Positions 23,979 to 58,161 are shown, counted from the first letter of the stretch. The stretch is DNA of 64,000 nucleotides from Candidatus Omnitrophota bacterium (GCA_016177405.1 JACOVG010000027.1:14733-78732), one strand, 5' to 3'. Notes: generated from the letters alone by a model not told the origin. Numbers and translations are program-made.

Positions 23979-24117
23979 CCCGTCTAGTTTCCCACAGATG
24001 CCAGGTGCCCGCAAGACCCCAGGTCGCGAAACACGTTAATAGGAATAGAAATCTCGTGTACACACTTGATTATTTCGAGGGCATCAGGTAGGCTTTTTGT
24101 ATGGGTCGAATTCCGCC

Positions 24118-27105
24118 ATGAGGCCAAACCCGCGATTCTTCTTAGCAAGATTTTTCGCCCCTTTGCTCTCGCTGGGGCTTGCCCTGCCCGATGTCTCTTT
24201 CGCACTTCGGCAGAACATCGAGGGTACCACCCAAGCTGGCTTAGAGGAGGCCCTTCGGCCCATTGTTGCCGCCGGCTTGGAGGAGGAGAGGAGACTGTCG
24301 GAGGCCTTGGAGGGGGCGGCTTTCCAAGGAGGGGCGCGTCTCATGAAGGACATCATCCGGTGGGCCGAAAAAGATCTGGCGGCAGCCGAAGCGGCAACCG
24401 CCGGTTTTTACGAGTTTTCTCAAGCGCGGCTCCCGGATTCGGTCGGCCAAGACAGTAATGGATCAGGCCATCTTATCGCCAGGTTTCTGCGGCTCGCCCA
24501 AAGAGCTCCCACCAGCCCTCCTCCAGCCTGGCCTCGGGCGGGGCCGAGTCAGGAAGAGTCCGCCGGGTCTGACGGAAGGCAAAAAAGCCGTCTCCTGAAG
24601 GCGCCCAAAAGCTATTTCCCCTGGGCCGGCCCCAAGGAGTTTCAGGCAGGCATGAAGGCCGCCCGGGAACGGTTGGCCACAGCGGGGACGGATGAGGAAG
24701 AGGAAAAGGATCCCCCCAGCAAAGAGGAGATCAAGCGGCTGGAAGGGCCCCTCCACCAAGGGCTTCACGCTGAAAACATCCTCCGAGACTATTCGCGCCT
24801 TGTTCAGGAGGCGGAGGATCTGCTGGTCCGGCTTCACCACAGGCTTATCCTCGCTTGCATGAAGGATAAAGGGATTACGCGCGACAGGGATCATCAAATC
24901 TTTGAGGATGTACGCCAAGGCGGCTACCTGGCCTTGCTAAACGCGATTCGGAACTACAATCCCAATCAAGGAACCGCCTTTTCCACCTATGCCTACCAGG
25001 CCATCCGCCGGGAGATCCACGACACCCTTCAGGCGATGTCCAGAAGACTTAGAATTCAGCCGGACGATCTGGAACTCTTTTTCAAGACCGCCCAAGAGCT
25101 GGAGAAGAAGCAGGGGATAGAGCCAGGGCCCGAGGAGATCGCGGAGGTCTTAGAGAAAGAATCCTCTTGGGCCGAGGCGATCTCCCATTGGAGGCAAAAC
25201 CCAGACTCCCTCAACCGGCCGGTAGGCGACGCCCAGCTTCTTGATCTCATCGAGCCCGAACCATTGGAGCCAGAATGGGAGGAAATCGAAGAGGAGAAGC
25301 GCGGCGTCCGTAAGGTTCTTGAGGCGGTGCGCCGCGAGAGCCCCGATGGCAGGCGAGACGCGCTGGTCCTCAAACTTTATTATGAGCTGGGAACCAGGAA
25401 TGGCCCTTACACACAGGAGTGGATCGCCAAGAGAACGGGGATCACCCCTCAACGGGTCAGCCAGATTATCCAGGATGGCATCCAGACGGCCCAAGAGCGT
25501 CTTGAGCTGACCCGTGAAGGGCGCGTGGAACCGATTCGTCCCGAGGCCCCCGGCCCCGCCGCGGGGGTTGCTTCCGGCGACGGCCGGGACAACGATGCCG
25601 ATGTCTATCTGATCGACGTGATGGGGATTCCGTACACGAGCCCCCTCTTTGAGCCGCTAAGCCGGCTTAAGAGGAGAGATCTCGAGAAGATCCAAGGGGC
25701 GCTGTCGGCCCATAGGCCCTTTCCCCTTAAGATCAAGCCAGGGGAATCTTTCCCGCGGCGCTTGACGCGGATCCGCCAATTTTACGGCCTGACCTCCAAG
25801 GCGGCAGCCCAAGGGGCAGGGGTGAGCGCGACAACCTACTCCGCCTGGGAGAACGGGCGCCAGTTGCCCAAGGGAGATTCTCTCAAGCGGCTGGCCCGCT
25901 TCTATGCTGAAGCCTACCGTCTCCATCCGGACGCGGTTCAGAGATACTTGGGGATGAGATCTCCTTGGTCGGTCTTAAGAAAGCTGAAGGGCAAGCCCTC
26001 GCGGCTGATCCTGAAGGGTCTGCGGGTTTCACAGTGGCACTCCGCCGAGGGATTCGCCAGGGCCGCGCTGCCCGGGATGAATCCAAAGAGCTACGTCTTA
26101 TGGGAGAAGGGAAGGAACGTCCCGCCGCTGGCCTTCTTGAGAAGGATCGTCTCCTTTTACGTGAGAGAGCGGGGTTTTCCCCAGCGCTCCCTGGAGAGGA
26201 CCCTTGGGATTCCAAGCCCCAAAGAGGTTCTTAAGGAGTTGAAGGGCAGGCCCCTGCCTGAAATACTGCGCGGCCTGCGCGAGTCGGTTCCCCTGACCAT
26301 CGCCGAACTGGCCTCTTTGGCAAAGATCGGCCCCAGAACCGTCACCCGGTGGGAAAAGGGCGAAGTGGTTCCCCTGCCGGCCAATCTTCGGAAGCCGGCG
26401 GAGGTTTATGCGCGGGGGGGTCATTTTCCAGAGAAAGAGCTCTTGGCCCTTTTGGATATCCCTTCGACAGAGCTGTTTCTTCAAGAGATCGCCTCTCGCC
26501 GGGGCGATGGGCCCAAGCTTCTTGATTCGCTGGAACACTACCTCGGCCTTTCCCAGTCTGGGATGGCCCGCCTGGTCGGTGTCGAGAAATCAACCTATCG
26601 GTTTTGGAAGCAAGGGAGGATAAAGCCGCCTCTTTCCCGGCGCTATCAAATGGTTGCGCGCCTCGCTGAAGAGGGCCGCCTTCCTGTCGAGCCCCTCCGA
26701 GAGGCCTTTGGCCTGGATGGGCCCGAGAAGACGTTGAGCCGTTTAAGAAGCATGCCGTTTCCGAAGGCCCTCCGGCACCTTCGCTGGGTGTACGGCATCG
26801 GAATGTCGAAGGTCGCCGGCCGCCTCGGTGTTTCTCGGTTTACCTACCGAGGACTGGAAAAGAGGGGGACCTTGCCGGCCCGATATCTTCCGACGCTGGC
26901 CGCTTATTACAGCGGTCTGGATGGCCTGCCTTCGCCCAAGCTCTTGGCTGCCCTTGAGGCCGGCCGTCAAAGGTGGCAGTCGGCTGATCGTGTCCGCAGG
27001 ATGGCGGCCGCCCCCGCCGCGCTCTCCGGCGCGGGGCTGGAGGAGGGTCTTTCGGAGCGGCTTCAGAGAGAACGCGGGACCGCCTGGCTCGGCGGGCAGG
27101 CATAG
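24118..27105 (+). CDS. GLEE-punctuated family protein: leader, sigma-70-like module (regions 2, 3, 4), five tandem HTH (XRE-like) repeats of about 85 aa each
   Basis: The start is set at the second ATG (MRPNPRFFLARFF...) because the first ATG lies inside the conserved promoter-like box. Leader ends ...VSFA-LRQ. GLEE at aa 48 and 60 (24097 numbering) and AGLEE 23 aa before the stop. FSTYAYQAIRREI (region 2-like) and LKLYYELG...TQEWIAKRTGITPQRVSQI (region 4-like). Five repeats carry the wEkG core of Cro/C1-type HTH. Confidence 0.6.
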   Translation: MRPNPRFFLARFFAPLLSLGLALPDVSFALRQNIEGTTQAGLEEALRPIVAAGLEEERRLSEALEGAAFQGGARLMKDIIRWAEKDLAAAEAATAGFYEFSQARLPDSVGQDSNGSGHLIARFLRLAQRAPTSPPPAWPRAGPSQEESAGSDGRQKSRLLKAPKSYFPWAGPKEFQAGMKAARERLATAGTDEEEEKDPPSKEEIKRLEGPLHQGLHAENILRDYSRLVQEAEDLLVRLHHRLILACMKDKGITRDRDHQIFEDVRQGGYLALLNAIRNYNPNQGTAFSTYAYQAIRREIHDTLQAMSRRLRIQPDDLELFFKTAQELEKKQGIEPGPEEIAEVLEKESSWAEAISHWRQNPDSLNRPVGDAQLLDLIEPEPLEPEWEEIEEEKRGVRKVLEAVRRESPDGRRDALVLKLYYELGTRNGPYTQEWIAKRTGITPQRVSQIIQDGIQTAQERLELTREGRVEPIRPEAPGPAAGVASGDGRDNDADVYLIDVMGIPYTSPLFEPLSRLKRRDLEKIQGALSAHRPFPLKIKPGESFPRRLTRIRQFYGLTSKAAAQGAGVSATTYSAWENGRQLPKGDSLKRLARFYAEAYRLHPDAVQRYLGMRSPWSVLRKLKGKPSRLILKGLRVSQWHSAEGFARAALPGMNPKSYVLWEKGRNVPPLAFLRRIVSFYVRERGFPQRSLERTLGIPSPKEVLKELKGRPLPEILRGLRESVPLTIAELASLAKIGPRTVTRWEKGEVVPLPANLRKPAEVYARGGHFPEKELLALLDIPSTELFLQEIASRRGDGPKLLDSLEHYLGLSQSGMARLVGVEKSTYRFWKQGRIKPPLSRRYQMVARLAEEGRLPVEPLREAFGLDGPEKTLSRLRSMPFPKALRHLRWVYGIGMSKVAGRLGVSRFTYRGLEKRGTLPARYLPTLAAYYSGLDGLPSPKLLAALEAGRQRWQSADRVRRMAAAPAALSGAGLEEGLSERLQRERGTAWLGGQA

Positions 27106-27171: not shown

Positions 27172-27752
27172 GTGTTAAGCTTCCTCCCCATGATGAAAAG
27201 AGAAAAACACAAGCCACTTCCAACAGCGCAAGTCGCGCAGAGGATCCTTTTCATCCGCGGGCAGAGGGTGATGCTGGACAGCGACCTAGCGGTCCTTTAT
27301 GGAGTTGAGACCAAAGTCCTTAATCGAGCGGTGAGGCGGAATGAAGCCCGCTTTCCTGCAGATTTTATGCTCCAACTCACCCAAGAGGAATACAGATTTT
27401 TGAGGTACCAATTTGGCACCTCAAACTTGAGGTCACAAATTGTGACCGCAAGTTCCAGGCACGGCGGGAGACGCTATCTGCCCTTGCTTTCACCGAGCAA
27501 GGCGTCGCTATGCTCTCAAGCGTTTTGAATAGTGAGCGAGCAATTCAAGTGAACATCTCCATCCTACGGGCTTTCGTGAGGCTGCGAAGGCTCTTGGCCG
27601 CCCACAGGGGGCTTGCCAGAAAGCTGGAGGAGATGGAGAGAAAATACGACGCCCAATTCAAGGCGGTGTTTGACGCGATCCGACAGCTTATGGCGCCGCC
27701 GAAAGAATCCCGCCGGAAGATTGGGTTTCATACCCAAGGGTGCAGGGCTTGA
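27172..27752 (+). pseudogene. ORF6N-domain (KilA-N-related) gene disrupted by a 1-nt deletion and a roughly 33-nt palindromic insertion; paralog of 29615..30148
   Basis: Two overlapping ORFs (27172..27528 and 27510..27752) together align colinearly with the intact paralog ([18 protein letters not shown], RFPxDFMxQL, ...[20 protein letters not shown]). Relative to the paralog, one base is lost after GGRRYLP. An extra segment made of two back-to-back perfect hairpins is present at 27418..27447. Confidence 0.6.
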
Positions 27753-28267: not shown

Positions 28268-29521
28268 ATGCGACTCTCCCAATGCCCTGGCAAAGTCTTC
28301 AGCGTGAGGGTTGTTGCCACTTTTCTGGCCCTGAGCCCCATTCTGTCTGCGCCCGCCCTTGCCCTGCGTGACCCAGAAGCGCGAGAGAAGAAGCCGGAGG
28401 TTCTGGGTGGTCTGGAGGAGGTTCTTCGCGGCGATCCCACTACTTCTGCAACGGCTCCTTCCGCGGCTGTCTCCCTAAGCTCCGCCGCCGGGCTGGAGGA
28501 GGGGTATCGGGTGGTACCTGTGACGGAAGAGTACGCCCTGCGGCACGCGGAGGAGTTGGCGGCCATCGATGCGGGGGATCCCGTGTGGAAGAAGGAAGGG
28601 CGTTGGGGTCCGGAGCGTTTCGCCACGGACGTGCGGCCTACCACGGGGACGCGGCTACAGGGTCTTTGGAAGTTCAGCTTCGTTGCGGAGGATGTTTCGG
28701 GGATTCCCGTGGCCTATATCTACGCAGCCGATGGCCAGCCGGACATCCCCGTGACCGCAAGGTACCGCGGGGCGTTTATCGCCCGGGTGAGTGTACGGCC
28801 GAACCAACAGGGACGCAGATTGGGCCCGCGTCTTCTGTTGGCCGTCGCCCGCGCGGCGAAGGAAGCTGACGTAGGTCCCTACGTGACGCTGGAAACGGAC
28901 AAGGAGAACACCCGCGCCCGCCATGTGTACGAGTCACTGGGTTTTCGGAGCGTCGGGGAACGGCTTGAAGAAAAGAAGGGAGTTACTTTCATCGAGTACG
29001 CTGTTCTTGTAGAAAACCTCATCCAGCGCGCGGAGGAGAAGCTCGCCGCCGGCCTGGAGGAGTGGGTGCCGAGGTGGCTGAAGGGACTGGCGACGCCTGA
29101 GGAGTTGGAGCATTGGATTCATCATGGGCACGAAGCCCTGGCGGGGTCTCCGTCGGTGGCGGTGCTGTTTGATCCGGGCTTGGTGCCTGGGAGGGACGAC
29201 GGGGATCGGGAGCTGTTGCTGCTCGAACTGGAGGGACAGATGCGGTCGGTGTTTGCCTTGCCGGAAGAGGTACGGTTCCGGATTGGACTGCGGGGGGCGA
29301 AGGCGGATTGGGAAAGAGAATTCCGGATTATCGAGGTGGTGCGGCATCCGGAAGGCAGGCCGGAGGCCCCTCCCCTTCCGATGGGTGCGTTGCCGTTGGT
29401 GGTTGCGGAGGCGCTGGCCTCTCCCCACCCGCGGTTCTATACCGACCCGCTGATTTACGCCGATTTGACGGAGCTTACCCTGCCGCAGGCCCTGACGGAC
29501 CTGACGGATCTGTTCGCCTGA
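28268..29521 (+). CDS. GLEE-punctuated family protein: leader, GNAT acetyltransferase domain, unknown C-terminal domain
   Basis: Leader ...PALA-LRDPE. GLEE at aa 48, 75 and 262. Canonical GNAT motif A (ARVSVRPNQQGRRLGPRLLLAV) and motif B (YESLGF). TATAAT lies 12 nt before the ATG and there is no SD. Confidence 0.65.
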   Translation: MRLSQCPGKVFSVRVVATFLALSPILSAPALALRDPEAREKKPEVLGGLEEVLRGDPTTSATAPSAAVSLSSAAGLEEGYRVVPVTEEYALRHAEELAAIDAGDPVWKKEGRWGPERFATDVRPTTGTRLQGLWKFSFVAEDVSGIPVAYIYAADGQPDIPVTARYRGAFIARVSVRPNQQGRRLGPRLLLAVARAAKEADVGPYVTLETDKENTRARHVYESLGFRSVGERLEEKKGVTFIEYAVLVENLIQRAEEKLAAGLEEWVPRWLKGLATPEELEHWIHHGHEALAGSPSVAVLFDPGLVPGRDDGDRELLLLELEGQMRSVFALPEEVRFRIGLRGAKADWEREFRIIEVVRHPEGRPEAPPLPMGALPLVVAEALASPHPRFYTDPLIYADLTELTLPQALTDLTDLFA

Positions 29522-37645: not shown

Positions 37646-37724
37646 GGATTAATTAAAGGCAGTTATTTTTCTGGTTTTACCCGCGTTTCTTAGGTATACT
37701 TCTTGTATCCGACGCTCTAACCCC

Positions 37725-40700
37725 ATGAAAACAACCCCGATGCGGCGTTTCTTTTTTCTCCGCTTTGTGAGCGCTTTTCTTATTCTCACGCTGGCCGTTC
37801 CCTGCCCAGCCCACGCCCTGCGCGCCGAGGGTCCCACCTCCAGCAAGGTTGCGGCCGGCTTGGAAGAGGCCCTCGGATCTAAAGCCGCCGACCCGCCGAA
37901 GAAGTCCAAGATTGATGTACGGACGAAAGAACTGTCGGTAAAAGACACCGTGCTGACGGTTCAACCCCTTTCACCGGACGATCTCCTGAATTACCGAGAG
38001 GATCTTTGGGAGCTCCTTAAACTCATCCCTACGGACATTCCGCACGATGAAACAATCATAGATGAGATGCGGCAAGGGAAGTGGTACGACCGGGATTTAA
38101 GTTTCGCGGTCTGGGATAAAATGTCGAATCGCCCCATCGCTCTGGCCACCCTGATGATCTCTACAGATCCCCGCTACAAGCTTGGGACGGCGGTCATCCT
38201 TGAGAACTTCGCTGTCCATCCGGATTTTCAGGGGACCCCCGCAACCAGCTGGCTGCTCCACCGTGCCTTTTCCAACGCGCACGCGCTCCTTTCTCGACTT
38301 CATAAGGGGGGACCTCTCTATGCGCACCTGCTCACCATGAAGGGGGGTCGTCCGGATAAGCTGGGTTCAGAACGGGCGGAGCGTTTTTACACCAAGATGG
38401 GAGGGGCGGTCAAGACAAGAATCCCGGTAGGTTGGGAGGTTAAGGCCGGAGAATTCGAGGGTCATGTCTTCAAGAATCCTCATCTGGAGTTTGAGTTTGC
38501 CCTTCCTGGATGCCTCGCGACGATCGAGCAGGAGTTTCAAAAAAAGCTGTCCTCCGGCCTGGAGGAGACGCAGGCGGTGGAGGTTCTTCAATGGAGCATG
38601 GAGGATCTTAGAGAGGTCCTAAGGAAGCGCGGTCTCCTTCGGCTGGGTCAAACCGATGACCAAGCGGCCGAGCTGGCCTTGAAGATGACGCTTGAGGAAA
38701 GATTCAAAACCCGGCCAACGAAACCGATTCTCCTTCGGGTTCTTCCTTCTAACCAGACGCAGGCGAGATCTCTGGAGGAGATCGGGCTTCAGCCTTTGGT
38801 GAGCCGAGAGGATATCGTAAGCCGCCTGGAACTTAGCGCTTATGAGGACCACGCCATTTCCCGCATCCGCCTGGAACAAGAAGGAGAACACCAGCATCTC
38901 TCGGTGCCTCTTTCCAAGCCGCTTAAAATTCCTGGGACAGGGCAATCTCTTGTGGAGGTCCGGATATCGTCCGGAGACCGGCGTTTTGATCAGCTTCCAG
39001 AGGTGTCGCGGCTTGTCCAGGAGCTTCGTGAAAGGAAGGCCAGCGCCTCCGATAAGCGAGATTTCCTCCAAGAGCTGCCCGGGCGGCTGCGAAACGGGAA
39101 GCTTCGCCTCTCTCACCTGCCGGCGTTTCCGCTTGGGTTGAGGGAGGAAGCGGACGTAGAAACGTTTGCCCGACGGGTTCAGCTTGACCCCTCCCACTCA
39201 AACCTTCTGGTATCGGAGGGGAAAGCCCAGGAAGCGCGCGAGCGCGAGGAACGATCCGCCAAGGCGAAGCCTCGAGAATCTCTTCCGGCGGAACCTCCAA
39301 AGAAGGATAAGCCCCCCGCGGCTGATCAGGAATCGGTGGCCCAGGCGCGCGAACTGGCCCGGAAGATTGCGCCGGAGGCCGCCCACGCCCTGGAGAGGCT
39401 TCTTAAAACCTTGGCTCTGGCGGCCTCTTGGGCTGGGATGCCGCCCAATTCAAAGGAGGTTGAAGCGCTGGGGGAAGAGATGCGCCGAGCCCTTGAGCCA
39501 GAACAGGTTGTGAGGAACCACGTTCGGAAAGGCCGCGCGCCTAACGAGGAGGAAGCGAAACGACAGCTTGCCCTGCTGGAAAAGCAGCTGCGGGAACGGA
39601 TGAGGCGATTGTACAAAACGAAATCAAGGGATGAGGTGGTAGCTTCCTTTCTCTCGCAGATTCAGCGGATGGCGACGGAAAAGAATTGGGCCAGCTATTG
39701 GTGGCTGGATCCGGACGTCGAAGTGCCTGTGCCCGAGGCGGTGACGGAGCTCTACCTGGTGGATCCTCCCGAGCTGGATGAGGCCGCCACCGCGGTCCTC
39801 TTGGAAGCGACCCGCTTGCTTCAGGAGGCCTTGGTACACCATCCGCCGGAAGATCCGAAGAGCTTGCTGTTTCTTCGAAAACTTCAGCTTAGCGGGGTGA
39901 GCTACTTGGCGTCAAAGAAAAAGCTTCCCACGGAACTGGCCGACGCCTTCGTTCGCGACCCAGGGACCTACCAGGGGGAGCTTTGGCTGGTGCGCCAGAA
40001 CTTTTGGTACCAGAAAATGCGCACGCAGAAGATTAGCGAAAACCACACGGGTCCACCGGGCTTGGTGCAGAGAGCTCCTCGTAAGGGGAGGGTGGAGAAT
40101 TCCAGCCATGAAATTGATTTTGGAACCCCCGGGCAGCTTTCAAGATCCTCTTTGAAGAAGATGCTTCTGACCAAGATGAAGCTGGTCCAGCAGCCCGTCG
40201 TCAGCGCTCCCCGAACGAATGGGGAGCCCGCAGGGCCGACGTATGACGACCATACCCGAGCCTTCATCCTTCTGGAGGTGGCCAGTCAGCCGGGGCACTT
40301 TTCGAAACCTGGAAAGTTGGAGGACGAGAGAAAATCATTCCTGCGGGTTATGTGGATTAGGGTAAGCGAGTTACAGCGCGCGCTCAAGCAGCCTGAACCG
40401 ACGTTTAAAGATGCCTACCAAAGAGGAAGACCTTTTCTTGAAGCCATTCAGATACCGGAAGAGGTCAGGCGGGATGTCCTCTTGGAGGATCCCGCGGCCG
40501 TTATCAACCTCTCTGCGATTATGTTGGAGGTGATGGCCCGGATCGCCCAGAAGCTGTCAAGCGATTTTCCGTTGGAAGAGGGTCTCGAAGGTAGTCGGGT
40601 CTTGCGCAGAGAGCTGACGTGGCGCTACCCCGCCTATCGGCCCTGGTGGCCCGGTCTGGCAGCCGCCGGCAAAGGTCAACCCTCCGCCGGCCCCTCGGCA

Positions 40701-43700
40701 GAGCTCGGGGCCGGGCTGCCCCAAAAAGGGGCTCCAGTTTATGGGCCACATGAAGGTGGCCCGAAAACTTCGGGGTTGGAGGAGACGGAGGGGAAACCCA
40801 AATCGACGGAGGAGTGGTTTCAAGCGGGGCTTGAATTTCTCCAGGAGAAGGATTTTCCATCGGCCGCTATCGCCTTCAGGGCGGTCACGGATCTGGATCC
40901 TGGCCTGGGAGAGGCGTGGTCGAATTTGGCCATTGCTCTTCTTGAGCAAGGCCTGTTGGAAGAAGCCCTTGCGGCCTCCCAGAAGGCCGTTATTCACCTG
41001 CCAAATTGCGCTGCGTGTTGGCTTATTCTCGGAAACATCCACCGCAACGCGGGCCGCCTCTCCAAGGCCATCAATGCTTATGGGACCGCTCTCGAGCTTG
41101 ATCCCAAGTTGTCCCAAGCCCATTCCCAGCTGGGTTTAACCTATCATCGAATGGCAGTTCTTATTTTGGGACGCCAACCCCCTCCTGATAGTGCCGAAAG
41201 CGAGACCGCTAAAGAATGGCTTCATCTGGCGAAAGAGGCCTACAAAGCGGCCATCGGCTTGAATCCGGATGACCCGCTGACCTTGAACAACCTTGGAAAT
41301 GTTTTCTTAAGCCTGGGCGATCCGGCTTCGGCAGAGGAAAACCTCCGGGGCGCCGTCATGGCCGATCCGGAATATCTGAACCCGTGGATCAACCTGGGCC
41401 ATCTCTACAGAGAAACCGGCCGCTTTTCCGACGCGGCAAAGGCCCTCTGTGAGGTGCTCAAGCTTAAGCCGGAGGACTTTGACGCCTGGGATTTGTTCCT
41501 CAAGATGAGACTGGATTCGCGGGGGCAGGGGCTGGAACGGATTGGCCGCCTTCACCTGATCTGGCACTCCATCTTGAGGTTCTCAAGAGCAGCAAAATCA
41601 CCGGAAGAAATGCCTGAACTTGCCAGGCGGCTGGAGGATGTGAAAAACCACGGGTTCCTCCCAAGCGATGTTCCCTTCATTCTCGGCATACCTGGCGGCT
41701 CTCCCGAGAGGATGTGGAGTTTGTTCTTTGAAAAGAAGGCAATCCGGAAACGGTTCCTGGCGCTGGGCGGGATACTCATTGCCATGGACGGCGCCTGGAG
41801 GACCAACGCGGATGCAGGCCGCTCACTCTCCCCCGATGAGAGAATCAGACAGCTCACAGAAGATACCACCCGAGGCTTGGGAGAGCTCCACACTGAAACA
41901 GGGCTCCCCTTCCTGGATCTCGATGGAGATCCGGAGCTGATGGATGTGATCGCCAGAACGCTCCAGTTCCTATTGTCTCCTCCACCCGAGGCCGGGCTGG
42001 AGGAGAAGATTGAACGATTTGGGGAATTGGTAAGGCAAGCCGGCAAGATCCTCGATGGACAGACGAAGCAAGGCCTCCTGAAGCCCAAGATCCAGCAGAT
42101 TCAAGAAGAAAGGTTCTTCATCGAGGGAGGAATCGCTTACCTTCCGCACCGGCAAGGAAAGGCCGTGGTGATCGGAGACCTCCATGGCGATCTCGAAGCC
42201 CTCCAAAGGACTCTGAAGATGGTAAGAAAGGAAACCGGCTACGACCCCAAGACCAACAAAAACTCCGCCGCTCCGGTCTACCTCGTTTTTGTGGGGGATT
42301 ACCAGGATGCGGGCTCCCAAAGCCTGGAGGTCCTCCTGACCGTTCTGGATCTCTACGCGGAAGACCCGAATCACGTCATCCTTTTGGGGGGTAACCACGA
42401 ACGGGGCCGGGCGCAGTACTGGAGCCCGGACGTGCGGGCGGAGGGCCCTGACTCCCATTGGTTTTTCAAAGACATCAATAAGATCGTGGGCAGAAAAAAA
42501 GGAGGAACGCTTTACGACAGGTGGCATCGGTTGTGCTTAAAGATGCCGGTTTTGGCGGTTGCGTCCCAGGGGCTGGTGGTTGCCCACGCGGGTTCCTCCA
42601 ATACGGTTTTGGAGGGGCCGGGCATCGCTGAAAAATATGGCGAGAAGCTCGATCCCAGGAAGGGACTCTTAGGCATTGCCCAAAGCAGGGATCTCCAGGA
42701 CCAGATCAGCTGGAATCCCATGCCCAGCCCAAAAACAGAAGAAGCGCTTCAACAGGCCCAGCAGGCACCCGATCGGCGCAACGATGCATTCAGGCGGCTT
42801 AATCCCAGGCGGCAAAAGAGAGGTTTTTGGACGGGGCGAGAGGGATTCGATGTCTTCATGGAGGCCATCGGCGGCAAGGTTATGGCGCGGGGGCATGACC
42901 GCCTGGCCCCGTGGTGGGTGACCCTTTTTAACGGCAGGGTGATCACCCTGATTGGGACCCACCACCAGAGCCCCCATTACGGATACCGCAAGGATCAGAT
43001 CACCGCCCGCTTTGCCGTCTTCGACCTTGCCAAGAGCTACGACCGTGTCGATCCCGGGGAAGTGCTCCGATTCCCTTGGGGCAAACCTTCCGCCAAATCC
43101 GGCCTGGAGGAGACGCAGGAGCTGATTGACCGATTGGCCAATTCAGAAGAGCCGATCACCGAGGCAGACGTCCGGGAGCTTAATGGCCATTACCAAGAAC
43201 CTTCCTCTCCAACCTACCGGGAGGCCATGACCTTGCCTCCAAACGCTGAACATGAAGCGGCCGGTGGTTTCCGGCCGGAGGCGCCCATTGCCGAGCAGAT
43301 GAGCGACTTTCTGAAGTGGCTGAATACCGCAGCCGGCAGCCGTCAAGACCCCCGCGTCTATCCGTCGCTGGGGCAGAGCATTCCCGATCGAAAGCCCTGG
43401 AATCTGGATTGGAATGACCCGGCTACCCATGCGGCGATGGCGCACTGGCTTTTCCATCAGGTGATCCATCCCTATGACGATGGAAACGGGCACACCGGCT
43501 GGGCCTTATTGAACATCCTCCGGCGAAGAGCCGGACTGCCGCCGGTTCGGTTCTTAGCGGAGAGAGAAGCCGGCTATCTCAAAACCTTCCGTTTGAATCG
43601 GGATCCCTTTCCGTATCTCCAGTTTATGGAGGAACCGACGGGGATGCAGGCAGAGGGAGGCCTGGAGGAGGGGATGCGGAAGTGGCGCCCGGAGCTGACC

Positions 43701-46004
43701 AGGAGAGTGAGGCAAACCGCCCGGGCGTGGAAAAGGAGGGGATGGCTGCGCTCGACCAGGGCATTCACCCAACCGGTCGTGGAGGCGGCGCGCTATGCCG
43801 AGATAGGCCTTCAAAAATCTCAAGGCAAAATGGGAGGAAGGCAGAGGATTTGGGAAAAGCGACTTCGAACCGTCATGGCCTTCAGCCGCTTTTTGCAGGC
43901 CCTCGAGGCCGATTCCCCTTCCCAGAGCCCCGCGAGAATCCTGGAGGGTTTTTCCCGCGGCCGATCCGGCGAATGGATCGAGTTTCCCGGCTCGGAAGGG
44001 GAGGCATTCCGGGTGAGGGTGGGGATTCGCAGGAGGACCAACCGCGGGGTTGGCCCGCGCAGGGTTGTGCCGCTTATCTCGATGAATTTTGAGGAAGGAT
44101 CTGCCTCGGACGGCCCTTTCCGTCCCATTGGCTCTGTGAGGATTGGTACGGATGAGGACGGAGGCTGGGAAAGGCCCCTGGTTCACCTGGACCTCTCCGA
44201 TCCCGTCAGAGGCGGCAGACAGAGGAATTGGTTTTCGCACGGCGAGATGGCCCTTGCCTGGTCTAACTCGCTAAGGGCTGGCAGGATTCATGAGGCCTTC
44301 GGCGGGTTTCTCAACAAGCTCATCCGCCACATCGAAGCCCTCCCCCGGAAAACAGCCGCTGGGCTGGAGGAGGGGGAAGAGGTGCAGAAGAAATTTAAGG
44401 AAACACTGCTCCGGCTGAATCCGGCTTGGAGACCTTTTATTAACCCTCTCGGTCCCGAACAGCTGAAAGATCTCATGGCCCAACCCTCCCGGGCTTCCCG
44501 ATGGCTGGGCCCACTTTGGGGGGGGATGGGGGGACGTAAGAAAGAACGGATGGAGGCGGAGCTTCAAGAGGCGAAGGGAGTTGCCGATCGTTACGCGCAG
44601 TGGTTAAGGCGGGAGAAACAGAGGCGCTCCTCTCCAGAGGGAATCCGACGCGCGATCGAAGAAGTAAGCCACAGGATTTTCCAATTGGAGCCGCCAGACC
44701 TTCGTGCATCGGTAGGAGAAGTCACGGCAACCATGACTGGCGATCCGCAGTTTTCGGGATTGCGCTACATCCCCATGAGAAGAATGGTCCAGGCGCTTCC
44801 TGTCCTCTCTGAAACGCTGGGGTTGGTCCCAGGCCCAGGCAGGCGCTTTCTGGAGATCGGCGCAGGTCCTGGCGGTGGAATGGGCCTTGTTGCTGCCCTG
44901 AAGGGAATGGAGGTGTTCCTGGTGGAGACCGACCAGCCCTTCGATGTGAATCTGGGTGAAATGAGGGAACATTTTCAACGGATGGACCTCACCTCAGAGA
45001 CGCTGGATCAGATGACGGCGAAAGGTGGAGTGGCGAAGGTAAATCCCCTCGAGAAGCTGGAAAAAACTCTGGCACCCCACCGGGAGGCGATCAAGGCAGC
45101 CAACGGTTCTGTGACCGTCATTCCCGGCGACTTCTCCCGTCCCGAGGTGCAGAAGAAGGTTATTGAGGCCGGACCCTTCTCCATTATTGTGGCAACGGAC
45201 GTAGTCGATCCAGCCGGCGGACAATTTAGAGCCTCACTGGGCGCTACCACAACGGGAGAACCCTCGGCGGCGAGGGCCATTCTCGAGGGATTGGCCAAGG
45301 TGGCGTCGGCTTCCAGTGAGAGGGGGAGATTGTATGTGAGTTTCGTGGGCAGTGAGATGGGTCTCTTGGGCTCAAAGGTTCAAGAGACTTACCAGACCCT
45401 TGAGGAACTCCTTCGAGCCGAGGGTCTTCCGGCAGACCGTTTTGAAATGGCGCCCTCTCCTTCATCAGGGGGAGTTCTTCGGGCTCGGATTTATCGCTTA
45501 GACGGCACCCCCACGGAAGGTTCCTTCCAATCTTTAAGTGAGGTGATGGGGGCCGGGCTGGAGGAGAAGCCGGAATGGGTGCAGGGGATCCGGGCGGCGC
45601 AGAAGCTGGGCAAGGTGGCGGTGCTGTTTGATCTGGAGCTTTTGGCTGAACTGGGAGAAGATGAATTTGCGCTTCGGATGATGCTCGTTGAGCTGGGAGG
45701 CATCTTGCGGAATACCTTGGCTTGGCCCAAAGAATCTAAGCTTCGGCTCGATTTGTCCAGCGAGGCGGATGAATACGTTGGGGAACAGGGGTGGGAGGTG
45801 ATTCGTGTGGTTCGGGATTCGACAAGGGGTGAAGACGAGGAGGCGCTGACCGTGGCCTCACTGCCAGGCATTGTTGCCGAAGCCCTTCAGGCCCTGGCGC
45901 TAGGAGGCGAAATCTTCCCGGTGGTGGTGGGGGTCTATCGAGCGGGGCTGAAAGAGAAAACCTTGCCGGAGGTGTTGTCGGATATGGCCAAGCAATTCGC
46001 GTAA
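37725..46004 (+). CDS. Giant (2759 aa) GLEE-punctuated family protein: leader, GNAT-like, unknown 740-aa region, TPR, PPP-type phosphatase, Fic-like, unknown, class I methyltransferase, C-terminal domain
   Basis: Leader ...CPAHA-LRAEG. GLEE at aa 45, 278, 1017, 1424, 1793, 1979, 2213 and 2611, each at a domain boundary. PPP motifs GDLHGD and GNHE, with GDYQDAG in place of GDxVDRG. Fic-like core HPYDDGNGHTGW. MTase motif I LEIGAGPG. TPR repeats at aa 1050-1400. The first domain is homologous to a domain of the 54178 protein (LIPTD...LSFAVW...AVHPD[FY]Q.TP...WLL..AF, NPHLEFE). Confidence 0.65.
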   Translation: MKTTPMRRFFFLRFVSAFLILTLAVPCPAHALRAEGPTSSKVAAGLEEALGSKAADPPKKSKIDVRTKELSVKDTVLTVQPLSPDDLLNYREDLWELLKLIPTDIPHDETIIDEMRQGKWYDRDLSFAVWDKMSNRPIALATLMISTDPRYKLGTAVILENFAVHPDFQGTPATSWLLHRAFSNAHALLSRLHKGGPLYAHLLTMKGGRPDKLGSERAERFYTKMGGAVKTRIPVGWEVKAGEFEGHVFKNPHLEFEFALPGCLATIEQEFQKKLSSGLEETQAVEVLQWSMEDLREVLRKRGLLRLGQTDDQAAELALKMTLEERFKTRPTKPILLRVLPSNQTQARSLEEIGLQPLVSREDIVSRLELSAYEDHAISRIRLEQEGEHQHLSVPLSKPLKIPGTGQSLVEVRISSGDRRFDQLPEVSRLVQELRERKASASDKRDFLQELPGRLRNGKLRLSHLPAFPLGLREEADVETFARRVQLDPSHSNLLVSEGKAQEAREREERSAKAKPRESLPAEPPKKDKPPAADQESVAQARELARKIAPEAAHALERLLKTLALAASWAGMPPNSKEVEALGEEMRRALEPEQVVRNHVRKGRAPNEEEAKRQLALLEKQLRERMRRLYKTKSRDEVVASFLSQIQRMATEKNWASYWWLDPDVEVPVPEAVTELYLVDPPELDEAATAVLLEATRLLQEALVHHPPEDPKSLLFLRKLQLSGVSYLASKKKLPTELADAFVRDPGTYQGELWLVRQNFWYQKMRTQKISENHTGPPGLVQRAPRKGRVENSSHEIDFGTPGQLSRSSLKKMLLTKMKLVQQPVVSAPRTNGEPAGPTYDDHTRAFILLEVASQPGHFSKPGKLEDERKSFLRVMWIRVSELQRALKQPEPTFKDAYQRGRPFLEAIQIPEEVRRDVLLEDPAAVINLSAIMLEVMARIAQKLSSDFPLEEGLEGSRVLRRELTWRYPAYRPWWPGLAAAGKGQPSAGPSAELGAGLPQKGAPVYGPHEGGPKTSGLEETEGKPKSTEEWFQAGLEFLQEKDFPSAAIAFRAVTDLDPGLGEAWSNLAIALLEQGLLEEALAASQKAVIHLPNCAACWLILGNIHRNAGRLSKAINAYGTALELDPKLSQAHSQLGLTYHRMAVLILGRQPPPDSAESETAKEWLHLAKEAYKAAIGLNPDDPLTLNNLGNVFLSLGDPASAEENLRGAVMADPEYLNPWINLGHLYRETGRFSDAAKALCEVLKLKPEDFDAWDLFLKMRLDSRGQGLERIGRLHLIWHSILRFSRAAKSPEEMPELARRLEDVKNHGFLPSDVPFILGIPGGSPERMWSLFFEKKAIRKRFLALGGILIAMDGAWRTNADAGRSLSPDERIRQLTEDTTRGLGELHTETGLPFLDLDGDPELMDVIARTLQFLLSPPPEAGLEEKIERFGELVRQAGKILDGQTKQGLLKPKIQQIQEERFFIEGGIAYLPHRQGKAVVIGDLHGDLEALQRTLKMVRKETGYDPKTNKNSAAPVYLVFVGDYQDAGSQSLEVLLTVLDLYAEDPNHVILLGGNHERGRAQYWSPDVRAEGPDSHWFFKDINKIVGRKKGGTLYDRWHRLCLKMPVLAVASQGLVVAHAGSSNTVLEGPGIAEKYGEKLDPRKGLLGIAQSRDLQDQISWNPMPSPKTEEALQQAQQAPDRRNDAFRRLNPRRQKRGFWTGREGFDVFMEAIGGKVMARGHDRLAPWWVTLFNGRVITLIGTHHQSPHYGYRKDQITARFAVFDLAKSYDRVDPGEVLRFPWGKPSAKSGLEETQELIDRLANSEEPITEADVRELNGHYQEPSSPTYREAMTLPPNAEHEAAGGFRPEAPIAEQMSDFLKWLNTAAGSRQDPRVYPSLGQSIPDRKPWNLDWNDPATHAAMAHWLFHQVIHPYDDGNGHTGWALLNILRRRAGLPPVRFLAEREAGYLKTFRLNRDPFPYLQFMEEPTGMQAEGGLEEGMRKWRPELTRRVRQTARAWKRRGWLRSTRAFTQPVVEAARYAEIGLQKSQGKMGGRQRIWEKRLRTVMAFSRFLQALEADSPSQSPARILEGFSRGRSGEWIEFPGSEGEAFRVRVGIRRRTNRGVGPRRVVPLISMNFEEGSASDGPFRPIGSVRIGTDEDGGWERPLVHLDLSDPVRGGRQRNWFSHGEMALAWSNSLRAGRIHEAFGGFLNKLIRHIEALPRKTAAGLEEGEEVQKKFKETLLRLNPAWRPFINPLGPEQLKDLMAQPSRASRWLGPLWGGMGGRKKERMEAELQEAKGVADRYAQWLRREKQRRSSPEGIRRAIEEVSHRIFQLEPPDLRASVGEVTATMTGDPQFSGLRYIPMRRMVQALPVLSETLGLVPGPGRRFLEIGAGPGGGMGLVAALKGMEVFLVETDQPFDVNLGEMREHFQRMDLTSETLDQMTAKGGVAKVNPLEKLEKTLAPHREAIKAANGSVTVIPGDFSRPEVQKKVIEAGPFSIIVATDVVDPAGGQFRASLGATTTGEPSAARAILEGLAKVASASSERGRLYVSFVGSEMGLLGSKVQETYQTLEELLRAEGLPADRFEMAPSPSSGGVLRARIYRLDGTPTEGSFQSLSEVMGAGLEEKPEWVQGIRAAQKLGKVAVLFDLELLAELGEDEFALRMMLVELGGILRNTLAWPKESKLRLDLSSEADEYVGEQGWEVIRVVRDSTRGEDEEALTVASLPGIVAEALQALALGGEIFPVVVGVYRAGLKEKTLPEVLSDMAKQFA

Positions 46005-54113: not shown

Positions 54114-54177
54114 CATATAGCCAGATATATTTCCACACCCCGCGCTGCCCTTCAGGTATACTTTTTATCACCATCCC

Positions 54178-57100
54178 ATGAGAAGACCTACCGTTGCGCT
54201 GGCCACAGGCGCCTTTTTCCTTGCCCAACTCTTTGGGCCGGGGCCCTCCCATGCTCTCCGCCCGCAGCAGGACGTGAGGGTCGGCTTGGAGGAGGCGCTC
54301 GCGCCCGCCGCTGGGCTTGAGGAAACGGCGAAGGCGGCGAATATTATCCGAAAGAACCACCTGGTGGAGGGATTACGCGGAGGCGAGTCAGACGCGACGG
54401 TAGTTTCGGCCTTCCTGAATCAGATACGAAGGCCGCCAACGGATGCGATAGCCATCTCAAGGCCCCCCTTGTCTGAAGAGCCGTACCGGACCGGCCCCCT
54501 CCTGCGGCGGGAGATGGAGAAGGTATCGTGGGGCAGAAGCTACGATGAAAAATACTGGCTGCCGGCCTTGGAACTGGTTCTTCAAGCGGCGGCCAGGCGG
54601 TTGAAGGTCGCCCCCAAAGAGCTTGGTCTCGTGAGCATGAAGCATCTCATGAGGCATCTCTTTCATGCCCGCGATCTCCAAGGGGATCTTCTCATGGGGG
54701 AGGATTCCGAATTGGATCTCTTCCGCTGGGCCTACCGGGAGATTCCCCGGACGGTAGCGCCCAAGCTTGCCTCCGGGGAGATCGATTCAAAGAAGCTCCA
54801 CGACGCCCTCGCCAATCCCTTCAAGGATTCCAACGATCGAGGCAACGACCAGGTGCAGCAAGCGATCTTTGAGTTGATGAGGGAGCATCCCGAACGGTTT
54901 GTAGATGATCCGAAAGAGCTGAAGGATAAGCCGCTGGAAGAGCTCGCGCCGATCGTCGAATCCTGGGTTCGCTTGGCCCTGGCCGCCAACCGGGTGGATT
55001 ACAGCCGGCCGGTGGCCTTGAAAGAGATCGAGAGGGTAGGAGGTCTGATTCCCTTTGTGAGGCGGGGGTTAGACACCCCATTTCTCGAGGCGCTGGGGCG
55101 AGACAACTATCTTAAGGAATTTGTTCAGCAGACCCTCGTCGGCTCTCCCGAGGTCTTTTTGGTCTATCTCGCCGACAACAACGCCGAGCTGACCGCGAGC
55201 TTGAAGCTGGCAGAGGTTCTCTTGTCGGCCAACCCCAACCTGGAGATCGCCTTTGTGGTCAAGGAGGATAACGGCGTCATGAACGACGCCTCGCACGAGG
55301 ACGCCTGGAGGATGATTTCCCACCAGCGCGATGGGGTGCCGGACATCTACGAGAAGCTGCGCGGCTATTTTCCAGATCGGTTCAGACTGCTTAAGGGACC
55401 CGGCTCCCAGGGGCTTCCCCTCAACGCCTTGCGAGCGGATGTGGCCGAGGCCTTGAGAGAGGCGGATGTCATCCTGGCCGAAGGGGAGGCCAACACCTGG
55501 ACGTTGAACGGACTGGACAAAGAGAGAATCTATCTTGCCTTGCGGCTAAAACAGGAAACATGGACGCGCCTCGTGTGGGGCATCGGCAAGGAGATTCTTT
55601 CTGATGATAAGCTGAAGTCCGAACAGCCGCCCGTCTTCGTCCGGATCGATGGGGCCCAGGGGGCATACTACCAGAACCCGCTCAAGGACCCCGACGGGGA
55701 AAACCCTTCCTGGACCATCTTAGAGAACTTGGACCCCTTGAAGCCGGCCCACGCGGGCTTGGAGGAGAAGGTGGCGCGGATATTGCCCGAGCAAATACTC
55801 CGGCAAGATTTCGGGAGGGTAAGGGAGGTTTCCTTTTTAATGGGTGGAGGGCTCGCGGCCTCAACGGAGAAGGCGCGTTTCCTGAAGTGGGATTCTTTCG
55901 AAGGCGAGCCGAGGGTTTTTGGGCACGACTCTTTCAAAACAGTTGTTTTCAGCCGCGGCGGAAATACCATCGCTTACGTGCCTTTCGATCAGACTGAAAA
56001 TAAGGGAGTCTCGGTCTACGATCTCGCCGAAAGGGCTGGCCGATTCATCCGAGTGGAAGAAGCCCGGGGCCCTGTCTTTCAGGCGGCGCTCGATCCCGAT
56101 GGAAAGCGATTGGCCCTTCTGTTTCTCGGCGAACCTAAAACCAAGGGAAAACCTAAGATCAAACTTCAAGTGAGAAATTCCACAACGGGCGAGCTTGAGC
56201 ACGACCTTGATATTTCAACGAAAGGCAAAAAGGTGCCGCTCCTTTTTACTCCTGATGGAAAGAAGCTGATAGCGGGGGAGTTTTTGGGCGATAACCCAGG
56301 TACCTCCCTCCGGTTTCTGGATCTTGAAACGAAGAAGGTTCATCCCTTGGCAGGCTCTTCCTCCGGCCTGCTCCAGTCGCTCCAGGCCTCCGACACCGCT
56401 TTGGTGGCCGCGGTGGCCGATGCCGATGGCAGCCGGTTCTACGCGATGACTTGGAATCTTACGGGAAAACCCACATCTCCCCGCGCCTGGCCGTTAGATC
56501 ATTCGGCGAGGTCGGTGGCCCTAAGCCCTGATGGTCGAACGATTGCCACCGGTAGGATAGAAGGGGAAATCCACCTTTGGGAAGTTGGCACGGGAAAAAA
56601 GAAGGCGATCTTGGAAGGCCACACCGGCGAGGTTTCCGCGCTGGCCTTCAGCCCGGATGGCAAGCGGCTGGCCAGCGGCAGCCGCGACGCCACGGTCCGC
56701 CTCTGGGACCTCGCCGGGCTGGAGGAGACGGAACCCGGCGTGCCATCGGCGGATGTGCGTTCCGGAGTATTGTCTGTCTATGGAAAACAGGCCCAGGCGC
56801 GTCCGCTGACGGAAACGGAGCTAAGAACGCACGAAGATACGTTCCGTGGGTTGCTGGAGTTGATCCCCACCGACAAAGATCGAGAAACGGATTTTATGGA
56901 CAGGCTTTTGAAAGGACACGAAGGGCCTGATCCGGGTTTAAGCTTCGCGGTTTGGACAGGGGGGCGCCCCATCGCGGTGGCGATCTTGACGAAATCGAAG
57001 AATCCCCGCTATCAAAATCGAAAGGCGGTCGTTTTGGAAGATGTCGCGGTGCATCCGGACTATCAGAGGACCCCGATCGCGGCTTGGCTGCTTTACCAGG

Positions 57101-58161
57101 CGTTCGCCAACGCTGCGCAACAGGGTTATTCATACGCCCATTGGCTGACGATGAGCGGCGGCCCTCAAAAAGAGGGTTGGCCGAATAAGTGGCCCGGCGC
57201 GGAGCGATCCGTCCCATTCTACAGGAAGTTCGCCGCCGTCATCAGGGAGGTCCGAATCGGTGATGCGGCGGCCGAATTTCCTGGGTACGCTTTCAGGAAT
57301 CCACATCTGGAGTTTGAGCTGGAACTGCCGGCCGGACTTGGCCAGCTCAAGACCAGTTTCGACGAGAAATCGAAAGCGCTGGTTACCGTCTACGGCGACC
57401 CTTGGGGCGAAGGTGTTCTGGACATCAGTGTTGAAATTCCGGTTGAGCCGGGAGCGAAGCGATCCGAGTTAGAGCGATTGCGGGATACTGCCGCGGATCG
57501 CCTGCACGAAGCGTTTCGTCAAAGCGCGTTGGTTTCACAAACCTCCTTCACGCTGACCCGTTTAGACGACAGCCTTTACTTGAGAGACCAAAGCGATGAG
57601 GTGAGCATACCCAACATTCATTTGTGGGAGGCGATCAAGAATACGGTGGATGCCTTGGCGGACCGTGCCGACGTGGAAAACCGGAGAATAGACGGCACGT
57701 TGTACGTTCGCGTTAGACGAAGAGAGGATCGCTGGCGAATTGAGTTTTCGGATAACGGCATCGGCTTTCCGGAACCCCCTTCAGATGTGTTCCGTTATGG
57801 ACCGTCGGCGCCCAAAGACAAAGAGCGCCGCTTGGGTTCGTTGGGAATGGCGTTAAAGGAGGGGTATTACGGCAACACGTTTTTGGGGCGGCACAGCGGT
57901 TTGTTGGTGATCGACAGCACGGATCGAAATTACAACGGTAGGCGAATGGTCTATGACGCGGTGGAGAAGAATGTTTTTCAAGAGCCCAGCCAAAGGAATG
58001 GCGGAATAGGGACGACGGTCATTTGGGAGTTCGGACCTTTGGCTGCCGGGCTGGAGGAGCCGCGGGCGGAGGCCCTGCGGGATGCGGGGTCCCCGCAAGC
58101 CCTGATCCCGACGTTTTCCGAAGGACTCAAGCAGACGCTGGAGTTGGCGGATGACCCCTGA
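54178..58161 (+). CDS. Large (1327 aa) GLEE-punctuated family protein: leader, DUF89-like, WD40 beta-propeller, GNAT-like, GHKL-type ATPase
   Basis: Leader ...[9 protein letters not shown]. GLEE at aa 36, 46, 527, 847 and 1291. DUF89-like motifs ([24 protein letters not shown]). WD repeats ([31 protein letters not shown]). GNAT-like domain paralogous to the first domain of the 37725 protein. Bergerat-fold motifs EAIKNTVDA (ExxxNxxDA) and DNGIGFP. Confidence 0.65.
   Translation: [1327 protein letters not shown]

Follow-up and report, generated by a model that had tools for sequence, protein, structure and literature searches.

An Omnitrophota protein that joins a signal-peptide-like leader, a sigma-70-family module and five helix-turn-helix repeats

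Within a 64,000-nucleotide stretch of a Candidatus Omnitrophota bacterium (GCA_016177405.1 JACOVG010000027.1:14733-78732; hereafter the window, in which positions are counted from the first letter), the gene at 24118-27105 encodes a 995-residue protein with a five-part layout: a signal-peptide-like leader; two AGLEE motifs; a sigma-70-family module; five tandem helix-turn-helix (HTH) repeats; and a third AGLEE with a short tail. An open reading frame (ORF) with such a leader, sigma-like module and HTH repeats had been described in a first-pass annotation of this DNA, and it is indeed present. The comparisons presented here show that this gene of an uncultivated Omnitrophota bacterium is genuine and conserved, and no artefact of chance or annotation. 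As read from the alignments, its product belongs to a lineage-specific modular family whose members carry a predicted Sec-type signal peptide ending in A-L-R and the motif GLEE at module junctions. The protein combines known kinds: it belongs to the sigma-70 family, and the modular family around it is effector-like and demarcated by a motif. No published description of this architecture or of the leader/GLEE family was found, and the GenBank entry names only a generic sigma factor.

The ORF is the sole long one at its position, and TTG 24097 is its earliest in-frame start. In seven Logan contigs, which come from a single groundwater study, an independent gene caller chose ATG 24118, giving 995 aa; the sequencing runs are SRR121134xx, and an agricultural-aquifer genome used in PMC11549363 has its source in the same dataset series. 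In NCBI, the protein (MBI1953606.1) is listed as a "sigma-70 family RNA polymerase sigma factor" of 980 aa, with a start 15 codons inside the leader. Similarly, the leader/GLEE gene for a GNAT protein (MBI1953608.1) is listed with 405 aa and a start 12 codons inside the conserved leader. These starts hide the signal peptide, and both gene models are corrected here. Rfam and tRNA scans returned nothing at the target locus.

Relatives were obtained by an exhaustive HMMER search of 1.84 billion representatives (P and L numbers are our own labels). A word-indexed search with the whole target returned only the target itself and a weak RpoD match; searches of GTDB species genomes gave chance HTH matches only, viral contigs held no relatives, and PADLOC and PHROGs gave generic HTH and sigma matches only. 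P0003 (E 1e-73) contains the sigma module, five HTH repeats and a GGLEE tail. The idea that P0003 is without the leader was rejected, since the contig ends before its reading frame does and a leader is present in the closely related L016. L016, recovered when the three closest proteins were aligned and used to scan metagenomes, is a 922-aa ORF (5668-8436) with 30% identity to aa 9-968 of the target, and its layout is complete: MKRMLVVALIIHLTLCNPVSALRQ...SGLEEAL, the N-terminal region, the sigma module, the DVYL segment described below, five HTH repeats, and TGGLEE plus a tail. P0015 (526 aa, E 6e-29) has the same leader, N-terminal region, sigma module and DVYL segment and a TGLEE tail, without the HTH array, and comes from the same metagenome-assembled genome (MAG) as P0160, GCA_016196375.1. 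P0004, P0008, P0009 and P0014 carry the ALR/GLEE leader and the same repeat array together with other modules. The family genes always stand singly amid housekeeping genes.

The leader of the target reads MRPNPRFFLARFFAPLLSLGLALPDVSFA/LRQ, with the slash at the predicted cut. It is composed of the n-region MRPNPR, the h-region FFAPLLSLGLAL, a Pro at -6, and S-F-A at -3 to -1, and aa 7-30 form the only hydrophobic stretch of the protein. In the leaders of every member read, two to four positive charges at the N-terminus and an h-region of 12-14 residues are followed by a Pro at -4 to -6; the residues at -3 and -1 are small, and the stretch that comes next is acidic. By inspection, the target and at least 13 relatives thus present the features of Sec/signal peptidase I substrates (positive n-region, h-region of 7-15 residues, helix breaker, small residues at -3/-1). 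According to the positive-inside rule, such a charge layout should leave the N-terminus inside (N-in) and the rest of the protein exported, and by the -3/-1 rule the cut should fall after x-A. The leader anatomy fits a cleavable Sec signal, and the body is predicted to be translocated. A Tat motif (S/T-R-R-x-F-L-K) is not present in the target (PRFF), L016 (MKRM), the GNAT protein or P0015; an RR pair occurs in some leaders, namely those of the giant, the WD40 protein and P0004. There is no lipobox Cys at +1 of the target cleavage region, in contrast to the neighbouring M48 peptidase (...VFSGC). The n- and h-regions are conserved between paralogues (RFFLARFF vs RRFFFLRFV) and also in L016 and P0015. 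Because the leader is conserved in the full-length homologue L016, in the sigma-only relative P0015 and in three window paralogues, it is most simply taken to be translated, and this retention across deep divergence speaks against a true start downstream of it, the objection raised in the first-pass annotation, which had also asked whether homologues keep the leader. A profile built from eight leaders returned ten further N-terminal fragments with the same pattern, two of which are annotated as Candidatus Omnitrophica. The "family leader system" proposed earlier does exist, and other Omnitrophota MAGs and metagenome fragments have it too.

The second mark of the family is the GLEE motif. In the six-frame translation of the window, 19 in-frame GLEE fall in four plus-strand genes and one falls elsewhere; the four leader proteins are expected to contain 0.42 from their composition (Poisson P = 3e-25). 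The two motifs noticed earlier behind the target leader were found as described, with GLEE at aa 41 and 53 and a third at aa 973. The four genes take up 16.5 of 64 kb (26% of the window), and their GC3 (0.66-0.72) is below that of the surrounding housekeeping genes (0.8-0.9). In their products, a segment ending in A-L-R is followed by 5-12 residues, GLEE[A/V]L, and then usually a second AAGLEE. Of 43 GLEE motifs, 42 are preceded by A, S, G or T, and a Pro/Ala/Ser/Gly-rich linker usually lies upstream. By comparing relatives, the behaviour of the sequence around the motif can be followed. P0008 and P0014 share 83% identity until about 10 residues past DAGLEE; their middle parts (305 aa in P0008 and 817 aa in P0014) are unrelated, and 85% identity resumes exactly at the next junction (DAGLEE, TAGMEE). 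Similarly, P0008 and P0004 are colinear until about 25 residues past a GLEE and diverge afterwards. These alignments show, at the level of the protein sequences, that GLEE marks junctions of exchangeable modules, and by the Pfam assignments it sits at domain boundaries, in the form [A/S/G/T]-G-L-E-E. The first-pass annotation noted neither this role of GLEE nor the recurrence of the HTH-repeat array and the sigma module in other multi-module and giant proteins.

A DNA-level motif was also considered and rejected: GGNYTGGAGGAG, which is Shine-Dalgarno-like, has 16 copies, all of them in frame within the four genes. GLEE is regarded as a protein-level motif because TGGAGGAG frequently encodes L-E-E in other places and start codons do not follow regularly, and the conservation of GGNYTGGAGGAG is explained by codon preference. 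At one pair of sites, the C-terminal AGLEE of the target (27024-27047) and the second leader AGLEE of the GNAT gene (28480-28503), 24 nt are 92% identical; this DNA similarity, which reaches slightly past the motif, fits occasional recombination at junctions. NCBIfam holds no model for the leader, the junction, the N-terminal region or the C-terminal domains, and a full-text literature search for AGLEE gave nothing relevant. A C-terminal domain common to the whole family was rejected as well, since hhalign gave no link to the C-termini of P0004, P0008 or the giant relatives, although the GNAT and 2759-aa proteins are related to each other (1e-11).

The assignment of the sigma module, for which the first-pass annotation had proposed a Pfam check of aa 230-470, rests on profile and fold searches that agree with each other. 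All three Pfam regions score above their gathering thresholds (GA) and stand in canonical order: Sigma70_r2 at aa 236-306 (41.2 bits vs GA 24), Sigma70_r3 at aa 323-379 (29.1 bits vs GA 25.3), and Sigma70_r4 at aa 413-456 (30.1 bits vs GA 24.1). Region 1.2-like helices precede region 2, and an acidic disordered linker (about aa 361-386) lies between regions 3 and 4. The NCBIfam sigma-70 superfamily model TIGR02937 gave 70.3 bits vs a cutoff of 42.9, and the RpoD, RpoS, FliA and SigF equivalogs were far under their cutoffs (e.g., 60 bits vs 354 for RpoD_Cterm). In a phmmer search of the PDB, RpoS/SigA were matched at 1e-12 across aa 230-463, and the family sigma-module profile matched primary-like sigmas at 3e-42; a word-indexed search with this profile returned only ordinary sigmas. 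An AlphaFold2 model built on a 44-sequence alignment has a mean predicted local distance difference test score (pLDDT) of 79.5, with the sigma part and the HTH repeats mostly above 90; for aa 170-470 this holds except in a disordered acidic stretch (aa 364-385) at the expected place of region 3.2. The fold is SigA-like, and the best Foldseek matches in the PDB are SigA chains of RNA polymerase holoenzymes (probability 1.0).

The functional positions of the module are less uniform. In the ungapped alignment to RpoS, sigma-70 W433 and W434 lie opposite Q294 and A295 in FSTYAYQAIRREI, and a Tyr lies opposite T432. The loss of the -10 tryptophan pair noted in the first-pass annotation is real, but the replacement reads Q-A and not Y-Q, a misregister of one residue. 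At these positions P0003 and L016 have Y-Q, and only P0015 has W-W. The loss says little, because the pair is also commonly lost among alternative sigmas. In region 2.2, the core-binding block D-L-I-Q-E-G-N-x-G-L reads D-V-R-Q-G-G-Y-L-A-L in the target, in which D403, Q406, G408 and L412 are kept. Region 2.3/2.4 is highly variable among relatives, and the residues that contact the -35 element are changed (TPQRVSQ in the target vs TRERIRQ). Among the blocks that the target module conserves are FSTYA and the region 4.2 HTH. With a pI of 5.3, the sigma part is acidic.

Past region 4, the DVYL segment does not vary between the target, P0003 and P0015, and it is found again behind sigma modules in P0086. 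It is helical in the model, with a mean pLDDT of 84-89 over aa 491-520 and 73 over aa 521-530, and pLDDT is below 50 in the leader and at aa 93-167. The five tandem Cro/C1-type repeats of about 85 aa reported earlier are supported by HTH_3 (PF01381; 94.4 bits, four stretches above threshold), by the repeat alignment and by the model. They are 81-87 aa long and share 24-30% mutual identity, and each has six helices in the model. In the fifth repeat, GLEKRG replaces WEKG, so that its turn is degenerate, and this repeat nevertheless aligns with the others and shares their helix pattern. The array is strongly basic (pI 10.8; 76 K+R vs 36 D+E; net charge about +40). As the earlier description had it, the protein ends in AGLEE plus a short tail, here 19 aa, and in L016 and P0003 a GGLEE occupies this position.

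The target's repeat type (LRxLR...PxxVLxxLxGxPL) is common to the Omnitrophota-type proteins P0003-P0014. The array also occurs in four proteins of 2,378-6,186 aa, in three of which (P0006, P0010, P0013) it stands behind a SecA-like segment; in these giants it adjoins SecA-like and protease-like segments. Several sigma modules per polypeptide are found in P0016 (714 aa) and P0086 (3581 aa). In P0086, they precede a KKKK-flanked transmembrane helix and an extracytoplasmic glycosidase-like C-terminal domain, and this protein may be a membrane-tethered multi-sigma signalling protein. It contains at least four sigma-like modules, at least three of which are followed by DVYL, and some also by an extra region-4-like HTH.

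The first-pass annotation had named a tethered or exported regulator and a DNA-binding effector as alternatives. As a tentative reading of these features, the target may be a Sec-exported, GLEE-processed, effector-like sigma mimic that binds DNA and engages the RNA polymerase of a partner cell. The mechanism would have four steps, all of which we infer. The leader would direct the protein to the Sec translocon, and signal peptidase I would cut behind S-F-A. The GLEE motifs, which bracket a short N-terminal pro-segment and the C-terminal tail, would then act as junction or processing sites, and the released body would span roughly aa 57-971. Like the sibling cargo, whose modules need cytoplasmic cofactors, the sigma/HTH body would be active only in a cytoplasm; once exported, it would find one in a host or prey cell. 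Finally, the HTH array would bind DNA and sigma regions 2 and 4 would engage RNA polymerase, and transcription would be redirected or blocked, as with phage sigmas. Action in another cell is favoured because an export-type leader is joined to cargo that needs cytoplasmic substrates. The family cargo (Fic, GNAT, HATPase_c, metallophosphatase, ARMT1, WD40, TPR, methyltransferase) is effector-like, and by analogy such a combination of export leader and cytoplasm-dependent cargo typically belongs to exotoxins and effectors whose site of action is another cell. In two papers, Omnitrophota are proposed to be predatory or host-dependent, with secreted multi-domain proteins (10.1101/2023.11.21.568195; 10.64898/2026.06.07.730766), and the cleavage points of these proteins are stated in one of them to be unknown (10.1101/2023.11.21.568195).

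The observations that weigh against this reading are substantial. In the sigma module, two residues of the core-binding block are changed (E407 to G, N409 to Y) and W433/W434 are lost. The recognition-helix residues differ between the target and its orthologues, which argues that there is no conserved specific DNA site. At +2 of the predicted cleavage site there is always an Arg, which is unusual for a protein that Sec exports efficiently in E. coli. The sigma modules of P0086 are probably cytoplasmic because they lie upstream of the transmembrane helix, and the position of the HTH array behind a SecA-like ATPase segment in the giants suggests a cytoplasmic location there too. Among the loci compared, no conserved immunity-like gene lies downstream of the family genes: the downstream neighbours are ORF6N at the target, an opposite-strand mutL at L016, and MazE-type genes in GCA_016196375.1. 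We know of no route into a partner cell.

The main alternative, somewhat unlikely in our judgement, keeps the protein in its producer: it would be a membrane-tethered pro-sigma, held inactive at the inner membrane by the leader and freed by a cut at GLEE for a regulon of its own, perhaps including the GLEE genes. Regulation of the family gives this some substance. AGGTAKRCTTYTT has exactly three perfect matches in the window (24086, 37692 and 54154), each 24-33 nt before the ATG of a leader/GLEE gene, so that three of the four such genes, including the target's, are preceded by it and no other position in the window is. The sites (24086-24098, 37692-37704 and 54154-54166) follow AGGTA[TG][AG]CTT[TC]TT with a -10-like TAKRCT; the fourth gene (GNAT) has TATAAT 13 nt ahead of its ATG instead. 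These elements suggest co-regulation and very short 5' leaders. Retention of the layout from region 1.2 to region 4, with a region 3.2-like linker, is what a working sigma needs, the sigma modules of P0086 are on the predicted cytoplasmic side of their transmembrane helix, and Bacillus pro-sigma-K and pro-sigma-E are precedents for a pro-sequence, membrane association and proteolytic activation. On the other hand, the charge distribution and the -3/-1 pattern predict a translocated body; the same leader stands on the GNAT, Fic/phosphatase and WD40 proteins, which are no transcription factors; and a GLEE cut on the trans side would not bring the protein back to the cytoplasm.

It is less likely still that the protein is an exported nucleic-acid binder that acts outside any cytoplasm (in uptake, scavenging, matrix, or adhesion to lysed prey), with the sigma module as a structural remnant. 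The basic pI of the array and the unconserved specificity residues of the orthologues fit non-specific binding, region 2.3/2.4 varies as a remnant might, and comEC lies in the same window; however, the conservation of the region 1.2-4 layout and of DVYL at 30% identity is left unexplained, as is the need of the sibling cargo for ATP, acetyl-CoA or SAM. We consider it improbable that the protein has no part in transcription or DNA binding and that its HTH repeats and sigma-like helices serve instead as scaffolds for protein-protein contacts, within a large assembly at the membrane related to the Omnitrophota giant proteins. The same array inside the proteins of 2,378-6,186 aa, beside SecA-like and protease-like segments, and the free variation of its recognition-helix residues speak for such a role; the strong positive charge of the array and the canonical HTH_3 and sigma region 4 signatures, including the W-E-x-G turn, speak against it. 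Finally, an ordinary cytoplasmic alternative sigma with a C-terminal extension, whose leader is a start-codon artefact, is very improbable: the PGAP start 15 codons downstream, the generic sigma name and the lack of a Shine-Dalgarno sequence ahead of ATG 24118 speak for it, but it is largely refuted by the conservation of the leader in the paralogues, L016 and P0015, the NCBI start still leaves LSLGLALPDVSFALR at the N-terminus, and the -10-like element predicts a transcript whose first start codon is ATG 24118.

Comparison with known systems places the target between several of them. It resembles group 1/2 sigma-70 factors (RpoD/SigA, RpoS) in having regions 1.2, 2, 3 and 4 in order, an acidic linker at the position of region 3.2 and the SigA fold, and differs from them by the added leader, GLEE motifs, N-terminal region of roughly 135 aa, DVYL segment and five HTH domains. 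With Bacillus pro-sigma-K and pro-sigma-E it shares a sigma with an N-terminal hydrophobic, membrane-associating extension. The pro-sequences of these factors are 20-29 aa long, sigma-specific and no Sec signal peptides, and must be removed by the proteases SpoIVFB and SpoIIGA, whereas the target leader has the full n/h/c layout, is common to enzymes, and is not sigma-specific. Phage sigmas (T4 gp55, SPO1 gp28) and nuclear-encoded plastid SIG proteins, the latter with a transit peptide, are sigmas delivered to a bacterial-type RNA polymerase elsewhere; the target has an N-terminal targeting peptide like SIG, but no known delivery route or target polymerase. The whole family is similar to CdiA (VENN), Rhs (PxxxxDPxGL) and MARTX proteins, with an export leader, a motif at exchange points, and Fic or acetyltransferase cargo. 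Unlike in those systems, the motif is GLEE, with many copies per protein, and the cargo includes regulators (sigma, HTH) and not nucleases; Pfam and NCBIfam gave no matches to TPS, RHS/YD, RTX, PAAR or LXG-type scaffold or secretion domains in the four window proteins. The tandem XRE arrays P0005 and P0011 (8-10 repeats) also have several Cro/C1-type HTH domains, each with a W-E-x-G turn, but their repeats are about 70-90 aa long and occur without a sigma module, leader or GLEE. The giant and very long Omnitrophota proteins of two papers (10.1101/2023.11.21.568195; 10.64898/2026.06.07.730766) come from the same phylum, have signal peptides before GNAT, HATPase and methyltransferase domains, and are suspected to be proteolytically processed; the HTH-repeat array and SecA-like segments of the giant relatives are a further likeness. 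The window family proteins differ in being only 0.4-2.8 kaa. In a term search, neither paper mentioned sigma, helix-turn-helix or HTH, and 10.64898/2026.06.07.730766 did not mention cleavage either.

The combination matters for two reasons. A sigma that is conserved with a secretion-type leader implies manipulation of transcription between cells or a new way to keep a sigma latent, as sigma factors are cytoplasmic by definition. In addition, a signal peptide ending in A-L-R followed by [A/S/G/T]GLEE amounts to an undescribed sorting and junction code, which gives candidate processing sites for Omnitrophota multi-domain and giant proteins. A bolder and doubtful extension is that the ALR-leader/GLEE proteins may form an unrecognised polymorphic effector system of predatory or host-dependent Omnitrophota, with modules exported, cut or recombined at GLEE and delivered into partners, where the target, a secreted sigma mimic with its own HTH array as DNA anchor, would hijack the RNA polymerase. 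If true, the target would be the cellular counterpart of phage sigma factors, and GLEE, together with the analogous RPEVR motif of P0007, would be the missing cleavage map for the Omnitrophota giant proteins.

Table 1. Features of the target gene, its upstream element and its paralogues in the window, with the evidence for each
Feature	Position	Strand	Evidence or remark
Putative promoter-like element AGGTAGGCTTTTT	24086..24098	+	-10-like TAGGCT at 24089-24094, 32 nt before ATG; presumed function
Coding sequence, 995 aa + stop	24118..27105	+	NCBI MBI1953606.1; exact protein on 7 Logan contigs
Signal-peptide-like leader, aa 1-29	24118..24204	+	Sole hydrophobic segment; layout common to 3 paralogues and at least 13 relatives
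Family-invariant A-L-R, aa 29-31	24202..24210	+	At predicted cleavage site; invariant across 8 aligned leaders, found in further matches
First AGLEE, aa 40-44	24235..24249	+	Six-frame motif scan, leader alignment
Second AGLEE, aa 52-56	24271..24285	+	Six-frame motif scan, leader alignment
N-terminal region, aa 60-194	24295..24699	+	No family match (NCBIfam); weak conservation with P0015, L016
Sigma-70-family module, aa 195-470	24700..25527	+	Pfam, TIGR02937, PDB phmmer, AlphaFold2, Foldseek
Family-specific segment past region 4, aa 491-530 (D-A-D-V-Y-L ... P..P-L-F)	25588..25707	+	Alignment, model
XRE-type HTH repeat 1, aa 541-626	25738..25995	+	Best HTH_3 stretch aa 553-596; repeat alignment; model
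XRE-type HTH repeat 2, aa 627-711	25996..26250	+	HTH_3; repeat alignment; model
XRE-type HTH repeat 3, aa 712-797	26251..26508	+	HTH_3; repeat alignment; model
XRE-type HTH repeat 4, aa 798-878	26509..26751	+	HTH_3; repeat alignment; model
XRE-type HTH repeat 5, aa 879-960, degenerate turn GLEKRG	26752..26997	+	Repeat alignment; model
Third AGLEE, aa 972-976, then 19-aa tail ending GGQA	27031..27045	+	pLDDT falls past aa 965
Leader/GLEE paralogue, GNAT acetyltransferase, 3 GLEE	28268..29521	+	MBI1953608.1; Pfam
Leader/GLEE paralogue, 2759 aa, 8 GLEE	37725..46004	+	GLEE flanks TPR, metallophosphatase, Fic
Leader/GLEE paralogue, 1327 aa, 5 GLEE	54178..58161	+	MBI1953628.1; ARMT1-like, WD40, GNAT, HATPase_c

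In the neighbourhood of the target, a gene for an M48-family lipoprotein metallopeptidase (23193-24014, minus strand) is divergent from it, 104 bp apart. This peptidase was considered as the processing enzyme and rejected, as the adjacency is not conserved beside homologues. On either side of spoVG and the GNAT leader/GLEE gene lie two ORF6N-domain paralogues (27172-27752 and 29615-30148), which are 57% identical in aa sequence and 72% identical in DNA sequence over 158 nt. In the first copy, two overlapping ORFs stand in place of one, probably because of a frameshift. In a related MAG (L017), the order is ORF6N-ComM-ORF6N-SpoVG, without leader/GLEE inserts. In GCA_016196375.1, both leader/GLEE genes seen are followed directly by a MazE/AbrB-type antitoxin gene and then by a small ORF or a PIN toxin gene (L014 11613-12148, L017 305-1005), which is either an immunity-like pairing or the neighbourhood of a variable region.

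The complete C-termini of the window proteins and their relatives end in Ala in 11 of 14 cases and in Pro in the other three. The Ala-ended proteins are those of 24118-27105, 28268-29521 and 37725-46004 in the window and P0004, P0006, P0007, P0008, P0010, P0013, P0014 and P0015, with endings of the types ..GGQA, ..DLFA, ..KQFA, ..AAFA, ..ARAA, ..LIQA, ..ADQA, ..SQSA, ..GRQA and ..AQKA. The C-terminal Ala of the leader/GLEE and related proteins may be a C-terminal signal or a degron.

The giant relatives have repeated motifs of their own. P0007 (6186 aa, with the HTH-repeat array) contains R[PAS]E[VIAL]R 14 times at spacings of 150-1630 aa, most of them 150-450, which suggests that junction motifs may be general in such proteins, as lineage-specific codes. 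In P0010 (3424 aa), EExxxR ... HxxxN repeats in hydrophobic stretches (about aa 620-760 and 2060-2160) presumably resemble CPBP/CAAX-type intramembrane proteases. P0013 (5776 aa) has repeated PGWESPLL ... HTGLHYQHNL segments, also in hydrophobic stretches, and the hydrophobic repeated segments of both proteins are candidate self-processing modules.

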